Shown here: piece after piece, positions 13,609-26,878 of the stretch | Layout of the letters: each line of letters starts with the position of its first letter | Position numbering within the stretch: position 1 is the first letter of the stretch | Position numbers and translations under genes: made by a program | Assembly (NCBI RefSeq): GCF_000145295.1 | Contig: NC_014408.1 | Coordinates: forward strand, 1,542,794 to 1,574,793 | DNA: 32,000 nucleotides | DNA from: Methanothermobacter marburgensis str. Marburg | Lineage (GTDB): Archaea; Methanobacteriota; Methanobacteria; Methanobacteriales; Methanothermobacteraceae | Reading direction: 5' to 3' | The notes under the pieces: generated by a model | Database searches by the model: none | Seen by the model: the letters and a program-made list of their open reading frames with translations, nothing else | What the model was told of the DNA's origin: nothing

Positions 13609-14296
13609 AATGATAAGGTACGGTGATCTGAAAATCGAAACATGCAGGGACGTATATGAGCCTGCAGAGGACACCTTCCTCCTTGCAGATAACCTTGAGG
13701 TTGGAGAGGGCGAAAGGGTCCTTGAAATAGGCACCGGTACTGGGCTGGTTGCCATAAAGGCCTCAGAGAAGGCTGATGTGACTGCAACAGATATAAACCC
13801 CGCTGCAGTTGAATGTGCCAGGAAAAACGCTGTCCTGAATGGCTCCGGGTTAAGGGTACTCCAGGGTGACCTCTTTGATCCTGTGAGGGGTGAGAAATTC
13901 GATGTTATACTCTTCAACACCCCCTACCTCCCTGTGGGGGAGGAGGATATCACAGAGGGTTCCATAGACCTTGCCTGGAATGGGGGACCCGACGGGAGGA
14001 GGGTTATAGACCGCTTCCTGGATGATGTGGCTGAACACCTCAAGCCCGGTGGAAGAATCCAGCTCGTTCAATCCTCACTCTCAGACACCAAGAGGACACT
14101 TGAAAGGCTCAGGAATCTGGGTTTTGATGCAGAGGTTACTGCAAGTGAAAGGTACTTCTTTGAGGAGATAGTCCTCATAAGGGCTGTTATGAGGGGGGCT
14201 AGGGATCCCTTACCAGTATCCCATCGAACACGAGGACCGCATCACCCTCCATGTAGGCCCCCAGCTCTGTACCCTCCTGGTAGACGTCTATTTTAA
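13601..14296 (+). CDS. HemK/Mtq2-like SAM-dependent methyltransferase (putative protein N5-glutamine MTase); 3' end abnormally long
   Basis: [13 protein letters not shown], the SAM motif [12 protein letters not shown], and the NPPY-type motif FNTPYLP. The start is ATG 13601 or 13610; the upstream part of the track ORF (from 13502) overlaps the HTH gene. The last about 32 codons overlap dapF. Confidence 0.8.
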
Positions 14297-15071
14297 GTTC
14301 ACCTCCAGGTAGATGCACCAGGACGCTGTCATCCAGTTTTTCAAGTTTAACCCCTGCAATCACACTGGCTGTGGCCCCTGTTCCACATGCCATGGTTGGC
14401 CCGGCGCCCCTCTCCCATGTCACCATGATGATCTCAGATGGGTCAACCACCTCAACAAAGTGCACGTTGATTCTCTCAGGGAAGAGGGGGTGGTTTTCTA
14501 TTGCGGGGCCAAGCCGCTTCAGGTCCACCGATCCGGTATCATCCACAAATATCACCGCATGGGGGTTCCCGACGCTCAGAGCTGTGAGTTTGATATCCTC
14601 ACCCTCAACCGGGAGGAAACGGTCTATGAACTCGCATTCCCCCACATCCATGGGTATCTGGTCTGTCTTGAATGTTGCTGTGCCCATATCAACCCTTGAG
14701 GAGACCACTGAACCATCATCCCCAATCTCAAGCTCCACGGTTTTGATGCCTGCAAGGGTTTCAACATCAAGTTTTCTCTTTCTCACAATGGCATTGTCGT
14801 ATACAAACTTTGAGAAGCACCTTATTCCGTTACCGCACATCTCTGCCTCGCTTCCATCGGCGTTGAATATCCTGAACCTTATATCCCCATCACCAGCTGC
14901 TGGCTGGACAAATATGACGCCATCAGCCCCAACAGAGAATCCCCTCGTGCAGACTTCCCTGACGAATTCAGGCTTTTTATCCTCGGGTATGCACTCCTGG
15001 GTGCTCTCATCTATAACCACATAGTCATTTCCAAGCCCATGCATCTTGGAGAACATTACCATCCTCGTCAT
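14199..15071 (-). CDS. dapF: Diaminopimelate epimerase
   Basis: [16 protein letters not shown], with the two catalytic Cys contexts (EMCGNGIRC and ACGTGATA). Confidence 0.95.
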
Positions 15072-21588: not shown

Positions 21589-21664
<76 letters not shown>

Positions 21665-21717: not shown

Positions 21718-22245
21718 CTATTCCATTTTACAGCCCCATTCATAGGGTATCAAGTCATTATCATTAGGGTCCAGCCGTCTTTCATCAACGTTTTCAGGAT
21801 CATATAGAAGGGACGGCATGCCTATGACCACAGCAATATCTGTACCAATATTCTTTGTTCCATGAAATATCCCGGGAGGTATGTAAACAGCTCTTGGGTA
21901 TCTTTCGCCCATAAAGATTTCATTTATTATACCATAGGTGGGTGAATCCCTGCGGTAGTCATAGAGCCAGTTTAACCATTCCATGCACACAGATCAGGCG
22001 ATCTTGTTGCCTGGAATGTATGTGCCACCCTTTAACCATCCCCGGATATGAGTAAGATGCTATTATCTGTTTTATATCCGCCGCTTTCATTCCATGATCA
22101 TCCAGACGCATTAGCTCTATAAGAAACCCCCTTTCATCTGAAAATGTCACGAGGTCCTTTATCACCCCCCTTCAATGGGTCTCTCACCATTAAATCCTGG
22201 CATTTTCTGCACGCGGGGTTTATCCATTTCTTCAAATGTCTTCAT
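21718..22245 (-). pseudogene. dTDP-4-dehydrorhamnose 3,5-epimerase (RmlC)-like cupin, split by two frameshifts
   Basis: There are three collinear pieces. Piece 1 is ATG 22245 [27 protein letters not shown]. Piece 2 is VIKDLVTFSDERGFLIEL...WHIHSRQQDRLICVHGMVKLAL* (track 21959..22165). Piece 3 is YDYRRDSPTYG...IPPGIFHG... (track 21718..21990). Joined, they give about 175 aa with the RmlC pattern i.Gv..i.p..f.DeRG.f.E ... dlR..SpTyG. The shifts are at the G6 run 22165-22170 and at about 21958-21967. Confidence 0.7.
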
Positions 22246-22873
22246 GGACTTTCCTCCTTATACATCCATGAAAGGGGATCCTTCCCATCGGGGAACATTG
22301 CACCATAAGGTTCAAAATATTTAAGATCCGTTACTGTGCAGAAATGCATCCCCCTATCCGATTCTACCATCATCAATGGTCTGGCTGCTTCTGTATCCCA
22401 TGAACCATCATTCCTGTTGTATATACGATCATCGACCTCCAGATGCACAACCTTACCTACTATCAGTAGATATGGTACCTCCATGTAGGTATCCTCATAA
22501 ATTCTGTGAAGTTCGCATTCCATCCATGCATAGCATCCCCTGATTCCCGGCACTGTCACCTTTGCTGATGGTTTCTCTTCAAGACCAGCCAGTTCAAATT
22601 CATCAATCTCTGGGGGAACATGGGATGCTGTGGGGATTACTTTCTCAACCATGTCTGCACCTGGCAGATTTATAACAAACTCCTCTGTCTCCATTATGTT
22701 CACATATGTATCCCTCATCTTAGCTGATGCCACACAGATAAGGTCAAATGGCCTGAGAATGGGCATCAGACATGAATAGGGGGCTATATTCCTTATACCT
22801 TCACCACTCACGGTTGATATGAATGCCACCGAAGTGGTATTAATGATTCTCTCTTAAAATTTTTTAATATCAT
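22242..22873 (-). pseudogene. Flavin reductase-like (FMN-binding split-barrel) protein; N-terminal 14 codons are in another frame
   Basis: The track ORF (GTG 22829) begins abruptly at [19 protein letters not shown]. An ATG at 22873 with a strong GGTGAT SD encodes [15 protein letters not shown] in a frame one base off. Adding one base at about 22829-22831 gives ...LIPLRVAFISTV, the usual family N-terminus. Its stop overlaps the next gene's ATG (ATGA). Confidence 0.55.
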
Positions 22874-23040
22874 ATAATCACCGTATTCTATATTAATTTA
22901 ATAAATATATAAGGGTTTCAGTGTTATATAATTCCTAAATAATCGGACAGCCCGGTGGAAAAACCAGCCCCGAAAACCTAAGAAGAAGATCCAGACAACC
23001 AGCAACACAGAAAAACATCAGAACATCAAGCACCGAGGAA

Positions 23041-23217
23041 ATGCAGAACATCAAAGGTAAATGCTGGCAGTTTGTGGGTGGTATTTTAGGAAGGGTCTTC
23101 TGGGCCTATTATACGGTCTATGGTCTGATTCAGTGGTATGGCGATAATATCAACCCCGGGTTTAAGAGGATCCCCCAGGCATACCGGTGGGTTCACAGGT
23201 ACCATCTCGACAGATAA
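23041..23217 (+). CDS. P1: unannotated 58-aa Gly/Trp/Tyr-rich small peptide
   Basis: ATG 23041 to TAA 23217 gives MQNIKGKCWQFVGGILGRVFWAYYTVYGLIQWYGDNINPGFKRIPQAYRWVHRYHLDR. It shares a GR[VF][FI].W...TVYG core with P2, encoded with different synonymous codons. The SD is weak (GAGGA only 1-2 nt from the ATG). It is followed 25 nt later by membrane protein M1. Confidence 0.55.
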   Translation: MQNIKGKCWQFVGGILGRVFWAYYTVYGLIQWYGDNINPGFKRIPQAYRWVHRYHLDR

Positions 23218-23242
23218 AAAAATAGATAAATGGTGGGTTTTA

Positions 23243-23635
23243 ATGAAATCAGAGAAGAGTTATTTTGTAAGTATGGCTGGAATGGTGATTGTTCTCATAT
23301 CAACACTCCTAATCCTATTCTCAGGGGGCATTCCGGCAAGCGGACTCTTTCAACTCATCTATCAGCGGCTGAACACAGCCCTCTTTTACCTGCTGCTCAA
23401 TCTACTCCTGCTAAGTCTCCTGAAGGCATGGTGGGGGGAGAACTGGCCACCATGTCTCCTATCCCTTGCCATCATCAACATCACAGGTATCACCTATTCA
23501 ACACTCATGGATATCAGTTTAACCAAAGGCACAATAGAGAGCCTATGGTCAGCCATTCTCCCAGCCGGAATAATCAACATCATCCCAGAACCCCTCAAAC
23601 ACAAAAGAACCCCAAAAGAGGGGATGAAAAAATAA
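23243..23635 (+). CDS. M1: small polytopic membrane protein (130 aa, about 4 TM, Lys-rich C-terminus)
   Basis: The true start is probably ATG 23243 (MKSEKSYF), with a GGTGGG SD 5 nt upstream. The track start at 23138 would overlap P1. Hydrophobic segments are MAGMVIVLISTLLILF, ALFYLLLNLLLLSLL, CLLSLAIINITGI and LWSAILPAGIINII. Confidence 0.7.
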   Translation: MKSEKSYFVSMAGMVIVLISTLLILFSGGIPASGLFQLIYQRLNTALFYLLLNLLLLSLLKAWWGENWPPCLLSLAIINITGITYSTLMDISLTKGTIESLWSAILPAGIINIIPEPLKHKRTPKEGMKK

Positions 23636-23644
23636 ATTAAATAA

Positions 23645-23755
23645 ATCATCAACACCCTCGCCCATATCCACCAATTAACAGTATCCCCAAACCTGTACCA
23701 GAAAAAAAGGGGGATATACAGGGTTCCCGAAAACAAACCAGAAAAAAACCAATGA
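23645..23755 (+). pseudogene. Start-less fragment related to the P3 leader (decayed small-peptide gene)
   Basis: The frame reads IINTLAHIHQLTVSPNLYQKKRGIYRVPENKPEKNQ*. SPNLYQ (TCC CCA AAC CTG TAC CAG) matches P3 MLSPNLYQ (AGC CCT AAC TTA TAT CAA), with 5 of 6 codons differing synonymously. No start codon is present. Confidence 0.3.
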
Positions 23756-23898
23756 CCCCGATGATCACCAGGTGACACGAAAGCAACCCCCCAGAAGAAT
23801 CCTTTCCCATCAACGTGAATAATACATTAAAAGTGAACCGTAATATATATATGAGTTTTTCTTATAGATTTATTATCAATTTATGGTGGTGATAATGG

Positions 23899-24756
23899 AT
23901 GAGAAAGTCGTGTCTTTGGGGTTTGCTGATCCTCCTCACACTCGCAGTATCCTTTAACGCTGCCGCAGCCGCAGAAACCCCGCAGGATAACAGCAGCAAC
24001 CCCACCGATCCCATGGAACTATCCACAGCAGATAACCCTGAAGGGAACTTCACGGATCCAGCAGAGTTCACCATAGACGATAACATCACAGCCGACACCA
24101 CAGGAGTGGTTATGCAGACCAGGAACTACACCTGCGGGCCGGCAGCACTCGCCACACTACTCCAGAACCTTGGAATAAACACAACCGAAGATGAGCTCGC
24201 AGACCTCGCCGAAACCACAGAAGACGGAACAACAATGCAGGGACTCATCAAAGCAGCAAAGGCCAAAGGCGTGAATGCAGTCGCAAAGAGGGTTTCTGTA
24301 GAAAACCTGAAACCTGGGATGATAGTCTACATGGACGGTCATTACAGTGTCATAAGAGATGTGGATAATGAGACAGTTTCACTGGCAGACCCCAGCCTCG
24401 GGAAGATATCAAGACCACTTGAAGAATTTAAAGATGAATACAGTGGTATGGCACTACTTATAAGTGGAAACAACACATCAGCGGACGGAACAGGAGATAA
24501 CCTCTCAGAAAACACCACAGAAGAACCATCGCCAGAAGAAATTGAAAACATAAAAGGAAGATATCACACAAGCTACACGGAATACAGGAAAGTATACGTG
24601 CGTATAGAATATCGGTGGGTCTGTGGGTGGCACAAAGAGGTTGTAGGGGGTATACATACAATATTTGGAACTTTTCCACTTTACAGAGAAGTATGGGGCT
24701 GGTACAGAGTCTATGATCCGCACTATGAACTAAGAGTCATAGCCATTAAGAGGTGA
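23899..24756 (+). CDS. Exported C39-like (papain-fold) cysteine peptidase with an aromatic-rich, P1-like C-terminal tail
   Basis: GGTGGTGAT SD lies 5 nt upstream. Sec-type signal MRKSCLWGLLILLTLAVSFNAAAAA. The core is MQTRNYTCGPAALATLLQNLG...GHYSVIRDVDNETVSLADP, giving Q73-x5-C79, H148 and D164 (H-x15-D). This is the arrangement I recall for C39 / C39_2 peptidase domains. There are at least 8 N-x-S/T sequons. Confidence 0.75.
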   Translation: MRKSCLWGLLILLTLAVSFNAAAAAETPQDNSSNPTDPMELSTADNPEGNFTDPAEFTIDDNITADTTGVVMQTRNYTCGPAALATLLQNLGINTTEDELADLAETTEDGTTMQGLIKAAKAKGVNAVAKRVSVENLKPGMIVYMDGHYSVIRDVDNETVSLADPSLGKISRPLEEFKDEYSGMALLISGNNTSADGTGDNLSENTTEEPSPEEIENIKGRYHTSYTEYRKVYVRIEYRWVCGWHKEVVGGIHTIFGTFPLYREVWGWYRVYDPHYELRVIAIKR

Positions 24757-24761
24757 AAAGT

Positions 24762-25241
24762 ATGGATAGAAGGCATTTTCTGATTCTTGGTCTGCTTGCT
24801 GGCTTTTTTGTGGGTTACGGAGTGAGTGAGCTTCTTATAGCAGGTATTTCCCTTCCATCCAGTGGAAATGATCTCGCTAAACCCTTAACAGGCGCTGAAG
24901 CCGTGAAATATAAGGAGGAGTGCCGTGCACTTGACCTTTCCACTTCAAGGGAGGATCCATACGCCCTCAACGGTCAGAAGGTCTGGGTTGAGGGAACAGT
25001 GTATAAAAAGGGGGAATCATACGGTGTCAAACCACAGGAAACCTTCATTGCCCTCAAGATCAACACCACACCAGACTACATACTCCTAAGTTACGCCGGG
25101 AAAACCCCAATAAAAAAGGGGGACCATATAAAAGCATATGGTGAATACTTCTACCCTGCAGAGGACACAACCACACCTGAACTCAAAAATAAAGAACTCC
25201 CTCTGATAAAAGTCGTCTACATTGAGAAAATAAACAGCTGA
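24762..25241 (+). CDS. Exported or membrane-anchored protein with a twin-arginine-like N-terminus (MDRRHFLILGLLAG)
   Basis: GAGGTGA SD lies 5 nt upstream of ATG 24762; the track start GTG 24753 overlaps the peptidase stop. One N-terminal hydrophobic segment is followed by a soluble, probably beta-rich domain. No family was recognised. Confidence 0.6.
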   Translation: MDRRHFLILGLLAGFFVGYGVSELLIAGISLPSSGNDLAKPLTGAEAVKYKEECRALDLSTSREDPYALNGQKVWVEGTVYKKGESYGVKPQETFIALKINTTPDYILLSYAGKTPIKKGDHIKAYGEYFYPAEDTTTPELKNKELPLIKVVYIEKINS

Positions 25242-25327
25242 TACATCAAACACATGGAACACAAAACACTCCAACATTCTAGTTAATAGAACAGTAACCA
25301 ATTATTTTTTAAAAGAGGGGAAAAGCT

Positions 25328-25759
25328 ATGAAATATAAAAGGTTTATATTAACGTTACTGGCGGTTTTTGCCATAACTGCGGCTATAGTTCTATCAGGGT
25401 GGCTGCAGGGGGATGAGCTGGCCCCATTCTTCTATGTTGTCTCAGGGGACCCTGTTGATTCAGCAGCCTATATTCTCATTTTAGATGTCATTGCTATACT
25501 GTTCATGACTGGTTTGAAGGGGGTTATCATAGACACGGGTGGATGCTATGACCATGACTTTACCGGGACACTACTAATCAGCGCCCTGTTCACACTGGGA
25601 TTCAACCTCATAGGTTTAACAAACGCCATCCTCACAGAAACACCCATCAACAAAAATGTTGTGGGCACCACATGCGTCGCGATTACAGTAACCGCCACCG
25701 CATATATCGCCTTTACAGTGTTAACCATAATCAAACCAGTAACTGATTCAAAAGATTGA
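25328..25759 (+). CDS. M2: polytopic membrane protein (143 aa, about 4 TM)
   Basis: AGAGGGG lies upstream. Hydrophobic segments are FILTLLAVFAITAAIVL, AAYILILDVIAILFMTG, LLISALFTLGFNLIGL and CVAITVTATAYIAFTVLTII. Confidence 0.65.
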   Translation: MKYKRFILTLLAVFAITAAIVLSGWLQGDELAPFFYVVSGDPVDSAAYILILDVIAILFMTGLKGVIIDTGGCYDHDFTGTLLISALFTLGFNLIGLTNAILTETPINKNVVGTTCVAITVTATAYIAFTVLTIIKPVTDSKD

Positions 25760-25829
25760 GAAAAAAGCATCATTAAAATACAGCAAGCAAAAAACTGAAA
25801 GTATCGGTTGAAGATGAGGGGTGAATGGC

Positions 25830-25973
25830 ATGGTGAGGAGTTTAACTGGTGGAAGGTTTATTATATGGTTTGCCGGGACAGTGTACGGGGGTCCCTGGGG
25901 CAAAGCGGGTGCCCTTTATCTCATCTTTGAACCTGCAGAAAGGCGTCGTACACATTGTGGGTGGTGGTATTAA
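25830..25973 (+). CDS. P2: unannotated 47-aa Gly/Trp/Tyr-rich small peptide, paralogue of P1
   Basis: ATG 25830 to TAA 25973 gives MVRSLTGGRFIIWFAGTVYGGPWGKAGALYLIFEPAERRRTHCGWWY. GGGGTGA SD lies 5 nt upstream. It is followed 37 nt later by M3 (CAGGAGG SD). Confidence 0.6.
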   Translation: MVRSLTGGRFIIWFAGTVYGGPWGKAGALYLIFEPAERRRTHCGWWY

Positions 25974-26010
25974 AGTACCGCCATTCCTCCTTATTCAGGA
26001 GGTTTTATAA

Positions 26011-26343
26011 ATGTCATTTGATGAAAGAAGGTTTTTAGGCCTATTCACGGTTTTGATGGTAATTTCATTCCTCTATGTGTTTGATGTCCATGGAGCCTCA
26101 GAATTCATGGTTTTTCTCTTGATGCTTACCATGCTCTCCCTCTATGGCTATAGAACTTCAAACCAGCACAAAGGGCAGCTTAAAATTTTTGTTGAAACGG
26201 TCCTAACAGCACTCCTCCTCTACATCATACTGGTACTTCAACCAGCGCTAAACACCTTAAACTGGTATGTTGCCATCATATTACTGACAACACTCCCTGA
26301 TCAACACACCCCAACTGAAAACCCTCCCAAGAACCAACAGTAA
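26011..26343 (+). CDS. M3: small polytopic membrane protein (110 aa, 3 TM)
   Basis: Hydrophobic segments are FLGLFTVLMVISFLYVF, FMVFLLMLTMLSLYG and VLTALLLYIILVL / YVAIILLTTL. The C-terminal tail is rich in P, T, N and Q. Confidence 0.65.
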   Translation: MSFDERRFLGLFTVLMVISFLYVFDVHGASEFMVFLLMLTMLSLYGYRTSNQHKGQLKIFVETVLTALLLYIILVLQPALNTLNWYVAIILLTTLPDQHTPTENPPKNQQ

Positions 26344-26373
26344 AAACAAAGAAACATAGAGTACCTTTTTGGG

Positions 26374-26553
26374 ATGCTAAGCCCTAACTTATATCAATTG
26401 TTGAGGTAGAAGGGTGGCTTCATTGTGGAGATATTTGGGGGTTAGATTTCGATGGGTTCCAGGATTACAGTGAAAGCTAAATGGTCTGGTACCGTCACGA
26501 GGGTTATAGATTTGCATCATAATGGGGCCTCCCTACCCATTGGTAGGTGGTGA
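26374..26553 (+). pseudogene. P3: degenerate P-family peptide gene with two in-frame TAG stops (a 33-aa ORF from ATG 26452 remains open)
   Basis: The single frame reads MLSPNLYQLLR*KGGFIVEIFGG*ISMGSRITVKAKWSGTVTRVIDLHHNGASLPIGRW*. GGFIVEIFGG resembles P2 GGRFIIWFAG. WSGTV resembles WFAGTV. It has the same position relative to a downstream M gene as P1 and P2. Confidence 0.35.
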
Positions 26554-26557
26554 TCTA

Positions 26558-26878
26558 GTGCGACGTGCATATGTACTCATGGCTGGGGTTATATTGCTCC
26601 TTTTTCCCTGGATGCTGAGCAGAAATTCAGGTTTCCTTCTGGGCCTGGCATTCGCCATCTTCACGGGACTCGTTATCGCACGCTTCAGTAAGCCTGCTGA
26701 AGAAAAGACCAACATGATAATATCAGCAGTATCCTGTTATACAATCCTTGTCCTGCTGCAGGCTCTTAGAAGTTTTCCATTAAATTCCTGGACATTGCTG
26801 TTCACAGCAGGGTCATTTTTCCTCTCACTGATCCTCATGCAAACAGGAAGCATTCTAAACAGCGCCCTCCCCCAGTAA
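26558..26878 (+). CDS. M4: small polytopic membrane protein (about 106 aa, 3-4 TM)
   Basis: The track ORF starts at 26522. GTG 26558 is preferred because GGTGGTGA lies 6 nt upstream and it avoids overlap with P3. Hydrophobic segments are VLMAGVILLLFPWML, FLLGLAFAIFTGLVIA, IISAVSCYTILVLL and LLFTAGSFFLSLIL. Confidence 0.6.
   Translation: MRRAYVLMAGVILLLFPWMLSRNSGFLLGLAFAIFTGLVIARFSKPAEEKTNMIISAVSCYTILVLLQALRSFPLNSWTLLFTAGSFFLSLILMQTGSILNSALPQ

Follow-up and report, generated by a model that had tools for sequence, protein, structure and literature searches.

An exported C39 peptidase with its own variable peptide tail and a matching partner gene: a candidate peptide toxin/immunity locus in Methanothermobacter marburgensis

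The 32,000-nucleotide stretch of Methanothermobacter marburgensis str. Marburg analysed here (the window; NC_014408.1, positions 1,542,794 to 1,574,793) carries a gene for an exported peptidase of the C39 family, surrounded by small unannotated reading frames. It is well supported by the comparisons below that this locus encodes an exported C39 protease ending in its own variable peptide tail, followed by a matching partner gene, which together make up one complete module. By homology, the window further contains four orphan modules (tail E with M1; M2 alone; tail A with M3; tail B with M4), and two open reading frames (ORFs), P1 and P2, which a preliminary description of this DNA had taken for new peptide genes, are corrected to displaced gene fragments. 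We consider it probable, judging from sequence patterns, that this is a polymorphic system of peptide toxin and immunity which does without an exporter and is centred on a precursor that is self-contained; for this system we infer cleavage, toxicity, immunity and a membrane target. The complete module has the following features:

23899-24756 and 24762-25241, forward strand: complete module, main gene with tail D plus partner gene I_D
23899-24756, forward strand: main gene, 285 aa, with signal peptide, C39 domain, linker, leader-type motif and tail D
residues ~1-25 of the main gene product, forward strand: Sec-type signal peptide, recognised by inspection
residues 70-191 (24106-24471), forward strand: C39 domain, with Q73, C79, H148 and D164
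residues 192-209, forward strand: sequon-rich linker between the C39 domain and the motif
residues 210-221 (24526-24561), forward strand: leader-type motif PSPEEIENIKGR, of the family consensus
residues 222-285 (24562-24753), forward strand: tail D, the 64 residues after the motif
24762-25241, forward strand: I_D, 159 aa, an N-terminal membrane helix and then a beta-rich domain; partner (candidate immunity) of D-type tails

The C39-like peptidase of the preliminary description was readily recovered by profile search. The main gene product matched Peptidase_C39 (PF03412) in Pfam over residues 70-191 with 98.6 bits (cut-off 22, E 3.2e-28), and its Q73/C79/H148/D164 aligned with Q11/C17/H96/D112 of the ComA peptidase domain (chain 3k8u), which we take to be the numbering of the ComA catalytic residues. 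C79, H148 and D164 are invariant in 30 homologues, and the four residues together are invariant or nearly so. The best Foldseek matches were leader peptidases, namely the ComA domain, the LahT150-leader complex and PCAT1 (5xe9, 6mpz, 3k8u, PCAT1), with E values of 1e-10 to 3e-9 and root-mean-square deviations of 1.3-2.2 A. The NCBIfam models of peptidase-containing ATP-binding cassette (ABC) transporters (PCAT) matched the peptidase segment only, scoring 51 and 44 bits where 853 and 524 are required.

These matches also bear on whether the protein could be a cell-wall or fibre-processing enzyme, acting on pseudomurein (like PeiR) or on surface fibres (like FapD and FilB), with an aromatic tail that binds the wall or self-assembles. 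Such a function would agree with a weak partial match to a phage endolysin (PHROGs, E 3e-10, residues 69-117), with a PeiR fold match (E 1e-5) and with NCBIfam matches to FilB (E 1e-7) and FapD (E 1e-6). All of these, however, are far weaker than the resemblance to leader peptidases (E 3e-28 for Pfam C39 and 1e-10 for the fold). The FapD and FilB models (NF058616 and NF050078) reached 28 and 31 bits, below their cut-offs of 330 and 475, and neither pseudomurein-binding repeats nor a C71 domain (the family of PeiW and PeiP) gave a Pfam match at E <= 1. Since a wall or fibre enzyme would also leave the in-cis leader motif and the cassette structure described below unexplained, we regard this function as highly improbable.

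The main gene product is predicted to leave the cell by the Sec pathway. It contains 10 N-x-S/T sequons (2.5 expected from shuffled sequences), none of them in the tail, and this excess fits an extracellular glycoprotein, in agreement with the earlier proposal of an exported, glycosylated peptidase. As that proposal had also stated, no ABC exporter was found among the genes called within ~6 kb; the exporter may be missing because the peptide would be exported as part of the Sec-signal-bearing peptidase. Upstream of the gene (23815-23898, forward strand) lies an AT-rich, TATA-like stretch with GGTGGTGA just before the ATG at 23899, a putative promoter. Its first ~60 bp (23815-23877) recur 5' of paralogous C39 genes at other sites (L062 7939-7994, 86% identity; twice in L001), so modules may carry their own upstream control region. 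Throughout, L001-L071 denote the homologous loci compared, and P0020, P0037 and P0119-P0155 representative proteins. Within Methanothermobacter, the genome-contig scan contributed one metagenome-assembled genome (MAG; L001, L003), and the remaining genomes of the genus were sampled via exact-protein look-ups.

Between the peptidase domain and the tail, the paralogues share a short motif. In an alignment of 27 Methanobacteriales paralogues, from which all motif and tail statistics were taken, the tail is preceded by 12 residues, in order L (26/27), T or S, any residue, E, E (27/27), M (26/27), Q, N, I (26/27), K, G (26/27) and K, giving the consensus L[TS]xEEMQNIKGK and the family motif L-x3-E-M-x2-I-K-G-K; the main gene of the window has Pro at -12. 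Double-glycine leaders are characterised by L-12, E-8, L-7 and G-2, with a hydrophobic residue at -4 (PMC13642728); in full the pattern is L-12, E-8, L-7, I-4, G-2 and G, A or S at -1. The family motif agrees with it at -12 (L), -8 (E), -4 (I) and -2 (G), has M at -7 and K, R, Q or E at -1, and in this alignment has the spacing of a double-glycine leader. In an AlphaFold2 model built on the homologue alignment, the predicted local distance difference test score (pLDDT) was above 90 for the C39 domain and averaged 92 for residues 211-220 (helix 212-217, beta bridge 219-220), and was below 50 for both linker residues 193-201 and the tail. This result suggests that the motif packs against the C39 domain.

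Immediately after the 12-residue motif the similarity among paralogues ends abruptly. On average, pairs of paralogues are 63% identical over the C39 domain, 26% over the linker and 69% over the motif, and 19% over the tail. The tails are 6-86 residues long and contain many Trp, Tyr, Arg, Lys and His residues and few acidic ones (W 7.6%, compared with 0% in the C39 domain; Y 10%; R and K ~8% each; E 2%). A motif followed by a short C-terminal segment could also be a sorting or anchoring signal of the sortase or archaeosortase kind, removed by the C39 domain as the N-terminal glycoprotein joins the envelope, with the downstream proteins as envelope partners. Some tails do combine a hydrophobic helix with a basic cluster (for example IAPLIIIGAVCIMCAAAYIYWGYQKSKKNKKR in L008 and VIWIVVAIIVIYVV..KKRGR in L005), and Methanobacterium versions carry a large beta-helix cargo N-terminal to the C39 domain. 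Most tails, however, including D, B and E of the window, are 36-86 residues long and Trp/Tyr/Arg-rich rather than hydrophobic anchors, and the Methanothermobacter proteins have no cargo beyond the peptidase itself. A sorting signal would, moreover, need neither a tail-specific partner gene nor stored alternative tails, and we find this explanation very unlikely.

The wider family was collected by an exhaustive search, which returned 215 representative proteins at E <= 1e-10. The best 150 of these are mostly not ABC transporters, and many have tens to a few hundred residues past the C39 domain. Many representatives have the motif, at times in a variant form (..IKGT, ..IKAM), and then a variable tail; the strict motif pattern is present in 55 of the 154 sequences that have the catalytic Cys motif. 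Methanobacterium versions have up to ~1,900 residues N-terminal to C39, rich in beta-helix repeats, and MAGs of candidate-phyla bacteria show a related form, ..[DE]EAxTxxGK followed directly by YVPVYI... Those bacterial proteins (L018, L019, L020 and P0119-P0155) consist of a signal peptide, C39 and an acidic stretch ending in ..GK; YVPVYI.. or another long variable C-terminus comes next. Pfam detected no known toxin domain in the long C-termini of L018-L020; a nuclease-like domain suggested by eye in L020 had no Pfam match and was dropped.

Tail type and downstream gene change together. Across 33 modules, tail homology was associated with homology of the downstream DNA (odds ratio 42, Fisher p 1e-14), in a test that used 650-nt downstream windows, some of which extend into the next module, and module pairs that are phylogenetically non-independent. 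Elsewhere in the family, M3-like genes stand behind A-type tails, M4-like genes behind B-type tails (..YMNWYRCVGYRYAA), M2-like genes behind C-type tails, I_D homologues behind D-type tails and M1-like genes behind E-type tails, and all five partners in the window agree with this pairing. The orphan modules of the window comprise the following features:

23026-23217 and 23243-23635, forward strand: tail E (P1) and M1 module; orphan, tail intact, 7 leader residues left
22939-23025, forward strand: remnant of a C39 fusion-gene linker, Asn/Thr-rich and in the P1 frame, with neither start codon nor signal peptide
23026-23061, forward strand: leader-type motif S-S-T-E-E-M-Q-N-I-K-G-K, positions -12 to -1; the P1 ATG (23041) is Met -7
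23062-23217, forward strand: tail E (body of P1), 51 codons and a stop; intact, displaced orphan tail
23243-23635, forward strand: M1, 130-aa membrane protein, ~3 hydrophobic segments; partner (candidate immunity) of tail E
25328-25759, forward strand: M2 module, an orphan partner whose tail is gone; M2, 143 aa, 4 hydrophobic segments, partner of C-type tails (CWQF..SVRNKYVPKKYW..)
25793-25973 and 26011-26343, forward strand: tail A (P2) and M3 module; tail pseudogene, partner intact
25793-25973, forward strand: tail A pseudogene containing the P2 ORF (25821/25830-25973), 81-89% identical to K4 tail A
26011-26343, forward strand: M3, 110-aa membrane protein, partner of A-type tails
26433-26522 and 26522-26878, forward strand: tail B and M4 module; tail pseudogene, partner intact
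26433-26522, forward strand: tail B pseudogene (IWGLDFDGFQDYSES, stop, MVWYRHEGYRFAS, stop), whose stop codon overlaps the M4 ATG
26522-26878, forward strand: M4, membrane protein, 3-4 hydrophobic segments, start uncertain (ATG 26522, GTG 26558 or ATG 26579), partner of B-type tails

Homologues of each partner were found next to the expected tail. Those of I_D (37-41% identical) stand right after Trp/Tyr-rich D-type tails in L002 (3 copies), L004, L005, L006 and L007; the longest ORF of I_D itself begins at GTG 24753, and GAGGTGA lies 7 nt before ATG 24762. M1 homologues follow tail E in L068, L071 and L070, with a decayed one in L062, and M2 homologues come after C-type tails in L004, L005, L006, L060 and L061. 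M3 homologues follow A-type tails in K4, L004 and L006, and 114-aa membrane proteins occupy the same position after A-type tails in L063 and L068. M4 is 37-42% identical to the genes after B-type tails in L003, L004 and L005, and 96% identical in K4. Pore-forming colicin immunity proteins are small inner-membrane proteins with 3-4 helices; M1-M4 are like them in size and multi-helix character, which would suit protection against a membrane-active peptide. The window partners, however, have no sequence relationship to those proteins, and the D-type partner has a single helix and a beta-rich domain; a single-sequence AlphaFold2 model of I_D was poor (pLDDT 46). A partner of another kind than those of the window, a SpoIIM-family membrane protein (PF01944), follows the tail in L066 8845-9612 (Methanothermus fervidus) and in L005 6761-7396 (a Methanobacteriaceae MAG).

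Orphan modules are not confined to the window. Arrays of them were found in L002, L004, L005 and L006 (Methanobacteriaceae MAGs) and in L062 and L068 (M. thermautotrophicus). They stand behind a full-length C39 gene, and their units are C39 copies truncated at the 5' end at varied points, lacking the signal peptide, each with the motif, a different tail and the partner of that tail. In the 32-kb window no additional C39 fragments were found. In Methanothermobacter sp. KEPCO 2 (L060 4307-9371) three full-length C39-tail-partner modules stand in tandem, the first two with identical tails.

Tails and partners decay unequally. A broken or lost tail stands beside an intact partner for A/M3 and B/M4 in the window and for E/M1 in K4 and L070, and none of the loci inspected showed an intact tail beside a broken partner. 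Toxin/immunity pairs predict this pattern of broken tails with intact partners and no converse case. A Kamchatka Methanothermobacter MAG (L001 10001-12500) presents a separate picture, in which the C39 gene, M2 and M3 are split by many frameshifts and the D-type partner is intact, owing to decay or assembly error.

Peptides that co-vary with membrane partners could alternatively serve recognition or signalling instead of killing, the tails being identity tags or pheromone-like peptides and the partners their receptors, in kin discrimination, sibling adhesion or quorum sensing. The architecture, the polymorphism and the co-variation of peptide and membrane partner would be expected of ligand-receptor pairs as well, no toxin domain was detected, and the long beta-helix N-terminal regions of the Methanobacterium versions are adhesin-like. 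The partners, however, are proteins of 110-160 aa in which neither Pfam nor NCBIfam detects a signalling domain, and broken tails beside intact partners, as well as orphans consisting of a partner only (M2; M1 in K4), better fit protection from the products of other cells. We therefore think recognition or signalling unlikely, and continue to favour toxin/immunity pairs.

The status of P1 and P2 follows from the same comparisons. Both are open frames, as the preliminary description had stated (P1, 23041-23217, 58 aa; P2, from ATG 25830 or GTG 25821 to 25973), and an ORF with several hydrophobic segments does follow each peptide ORF (M1 at 23243, after 25 nt; M3 at 26011, after 37 nt); M4 lies at 26522/26558. 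Rfam matched a tRNA only, so no RNA accounts for the P1 or P2 regions.

P1 begins with the seven leader residues M-Q-N-I-K-G-K. Upstream of its ATG the in-frame translation ..SPENLRRRSRQPATQKNIRT leads into the leader, homology to the linker and leader DNA of the K4 C39 gene begins at 23011 (82.5%), and the ORF listing has no ATG, GTG or TTG in the P1 frame before 23041. The same leader motif precedes tail E in L068, L062 and L071, and tail E of the window is 62-74% identical to tails that stand behind a full leader in L068 (P0037, from an M. thermautotrophicus MAG; 62% over the query) and L071 (P0020). In L071 tail E ends an otherwise full-length C39 gene, in which a frameshift cuts off the signal-peptide segment. 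By these homologies, P1 is the displaced C-terminal tail of a C39 fusion protein and not a free-standing peptide gene. A degenerate tandem repeat of leader-coding DNA (23006-23029 and 23031-23054, 75% identical, 25 nt apart) may be a trace of the truncation of the P1 module.

Tail E has been under selection, and several of its copies have decayed. The ratio of nonsynonymous to synonymous substitution rates (dN/dS) was 0.09-0.16 against L068 and L070. The T-V-Y-G codons of P1 and P2 read as earlier quoted, and the selection on a translated product that had been deduced from them is right given this ratio; the product, however, is the tail of a fusion protein. Tail E copies are frameshifted in L062 and in the second copy of L068, the L070 copy is start-less, frameshifted and interrupted by a nonsense codon, and in K4 tail E is almost wholly deleted. 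M1, for which Pfam and NCBIfam have no family, is intact in K4 and L070, where tail E is lost or broken.

P2 has decayed further. At the same chromosomal site in K4 the C39 leader is joined in frame to tail A (NWKYRLKKKGKWHGEEFNWWKVYYWVAVAGTVYGGPWGK..GWWY), and in the window codon 2 of tail A has changed from TGG to TGA, 5 nt are deleted near 25870, a second deletion has removed 6 nt, and the leader has been destroyed. By comparison with K4, P2 is a tail A pseudogene rather than an independent peptide gene. Because the 5-nt deletion shifts the frame, the first ~16 codons of P2 lie outside the ancestral frame. This deletion created the frame of 'GGRFIIWF', and thereby removes half of the core that P1 and P2 had been thought to share. 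The similarity between the two peptides is itself at chance level (Smith-Waterman score 29, shuffle mean 26.6 +/- 5.4, P = 0.30). The tail B remnant, which contains an in-frame stop, is 52% identical to the tail B end of L004 and L005 (E 1e-8), and K4 keeps the same remnant. Upstream of M2 no remnant of tail C was found; M2 itself is frameshifted in KEPCO-1 and L001.

These results decide between a fused tail and the earlier model, in which P1 and P2 are separate small precursors with early Gly-Gly sites, processed in trans by the exported C39 peptidase. Both are open frames that adjoin membrane-protein genes, and P1 is intact, has an ATG start and is under purifying selection. The P1 ATG, however, is the conserved Met -7 of the leader, with the linker continuing in frame upstream without a start codon, and P1 has no signal peptide. 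Its homologues are broken or deleted in L070, L062, L068 and K4 while M1 persists in K4 and L070, and P2, with its nonsense codon and frameshift, is a pseudogene. Homologues of tail E do not keep the early Gly-Gly of P1 either (GR in L070, SG in L068), and the conserved cleavage-type motif sits elsewhere, as ..EEMQNIKGK at the start of P1 and at residues 210-221 of the peptidase. Separate precursors therefore retain hardly any likelihood. What survives of the proposed cassettes is that peptides and membrane partners occur in co-varying pairs tied to an exporter-less C39 peptidase; P1 and P2 are not independent genes with leaders of their own.

The window was also compared with the genomes of KEPCO-1 and K4. 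The Methanothermobacter sp. KEPCO-1 chromosome (CP042937.1, L058) is 99.4% identical over 8 kb; its annotated 'peptidase C39' is 99% identical to the window C39 protein, and its called genes do not include P1 or P2. All 43 differences over the 8 kb (35 substitutions and 8 indels) fall within 24093-26295, inside the locus, and eight of the substitutions are packed into 24093-24138 (C39 residues 65-80), a cluster that looks like a gene-conversion patch. K4 and the window agree at 96% identity as far as 24275, which falls within the C39 domain near residue 125, and their agreement resumes at 25790, with the initial codons of tail A. The intervening part of K4 consists of a different C39 half, linker and leader in frame with tail A; that of the window comprises a C39 half of its own together with tail D, I_D and M2. 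By these comparisons the loci are hypervariable between strains, with exchange visible at the window site itself. Across the genus, modules are found at four or more chromosomal sites. In some biogas-reactor Methanothermobacter genomes (L063-L065, 8001-9312) a C39-tail A module lies between methyltransferase and diaminopimelate (DAP) epimerase genes, a junction that is empty in the window (~14200-14300); further modules lie beside the trp operon and hypC (L060, L061) and beside ThrE and a metallo-beta-lactamase-fold gene (L062, L068, L071).

Taken together, we propose the following course of events for a toxin/immunity system. The main gene product would be exported via its Sec signal peptide, and outside the cell its own C39 domain, connected to the leader by the glycosylated linker, would recognise the leader-like helix (residues 210-221) and cut at or just after Gly220. 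Cleavage would free the 64-residue cationic, Trp/Tyr-rich tail D, which would act on neighbouring cells, probably at the membrane, while I_D (24762-25241) would protect the producer. The orphan modules would be leftovers of earlier tail swaps, in which recombination in the conserved peptidase, linker and leader DNA installs a new tail with its partner and displaces the old pair. The displaced tails have neither signal peptide nor peptidase and would therefore be silent and tend to decay, while the partner genes would be kept.

Several observations weigh against this proposal. Position -1 of the motif is mostly Lys or Arg, whereas characterised C39 peptidases accept Gly, Ala or Ser, and cleavage at the motif is therefore only putative. 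The sole pointer to contact between the motif and the active site is the confidence of the AlphaFold2 model. Searches of Pfam, NCBIfam, PADLOC and PHROGs gave nothing meaningful for the tails or partner proteins, and no toxin, immunity or defence family among them. Besides the non-independence of the module pairs mentioned above, the D-type partner is not a multi-pass membrane protein, and the partner genes are under moderate constraint (dN/dS 0.3-0.6). Finally, several main genes are broken, by nonsense codons in K4 and L062 and by frameshifts in L001; the system would then often be inactive, although some of these breaks could be assembly errors.

The locus shares parts of its organisation with several known systems. 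With ComA, LahT and PCAT1 and the class II bacteriocins and microcins it has in common the C39 fold, the catalytic Q/C/H/D, the L-12/E-8/hydrophobic -7/-4/G-2 pattern of a substrate-like motif and a small peptide with an adjacent gene for a small membrane protein. It differs in that there is no ABC transporter, the peptidase being a Sec-exported stand-alone enzyme; in that the leader lies in the same polypeptide, C-terminal to the enzyme, and not at the N-terminus of a separate precursor; in the Lys or Arg at -1; and in the swapping of tails as cassettes. Class II bacteriocins are made as small separate precursors with an N-terminal leader, whereas here the leader is at residues 210-221 of a 285-aa protein, P1 retains 7 leader residues and P2 none. 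The cognate small protein gene of class II bacteriocins has a counterpart here by adjacency and co-variation, its protective function being putative.

A likeness in genetic layout is found in polymorphic toxins with orphan modules, such as CdiA-CT/CdiI and Rhs, for which theory is well established (in the available part of Zhang et al. 2012, PMC3482391). As described there, these have a conserved N-terminal part, a short motif, a variable C-terminus, a cognate gene directly downstream, 5'-truncated orphan arrays and exchange between strains at the locus. In the window, by contrast, the variable part is a peptide of 30-90 residues without a recognisable toxin domain, export is by Sec only, and release would fall to a C39 domain that has a recognition helix of leader type; the available part of that paper lists C39-like domains as toxin domains and not as releasing peptidases.

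C39 loci of archaea have been noted before. An archaeal 'dark matter' island combines a C39 peptidase with double-glycine-leader proteins (Makarova et al. 2019, PMC6393860, Fig. 2E), and arCOG10864 is a predicted C39 peptidase (PMC4158269). In the portions of these papers available to us, such islands are, like the window, C39-centred with duplicated neighbour genes and predicted to be bacteriocin-like or quorum-sensing systems. The accessible text of PMC6393860 describes separate leader-peptide proteins, however, and the fused leader and tail and the orphan cassettes are features of the window only. Among Methanobacterium single cells a C39 gene and its neighbours vary and rearrange, for which bacteriocin processing was suggested (Fones et al. 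2020, PMC8115248); the window shares this variation and rearrangement, whereas protein architecture, motif, tails and partners are not analysed in the part of that paper at hand. The literature searched, some of it available as excerpts, contained no description of a leader and tail fused to a C39 peptidase, or of orphan tail/partner cassettes.

To our knowledge, no antagonistic peptide system of a methanogen has been defined by experiment, and our literature searches found none. The locus is a testable candidate, in which a single gene would provide export, processing and release without a dedicated transporter, accompanied by a protective gene and alternative pairs. If this is true, it would extend the polymorphic-toxin principle to small peptides and a new releasing enzyme. 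It would also account for a widespread, fast-changing and unannotated group of genes in Methanobacteriales, and could supply strain-specific inhibitors for organisms of biogas reactors, gut or rumen. More tentatively, Methanobacteriales and, by sequence pattern, some candidate-phyla bacteria might possess a large undescribed class of self-processing peptide toxins, in which C39 would have parted from the ABC exporter and would serve as a Sec-exported, cis-acting releasing domain fused to a leader and a swappable peptide; we hold this to be possible, at rather less than even chances. On that reading they would be the first antagonistic peptides ('methanocins') defined for methanogens, with a library of peptide/immunity pairs.

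The surroundings of the locus are as follows. It is flanked by HisF on one side and by FmdE and a helicase on the other. An antisense ORF of 94 aa (23494-23778, reverse strand), opposite the end of M1 and the spacer behind it, matches no family and is unlikely to be a gene. At 21589-21664, ~100 bp before the homology with K4 breaks, there is a tRNA-Arg(TCG) gene. The adjoining 1.47 kb (21763-23229) are present in the window and KEPCO-1 and not in K4, and contain split RmlC-like cupin ORFs, a flavin-reductase-like gene and P1.

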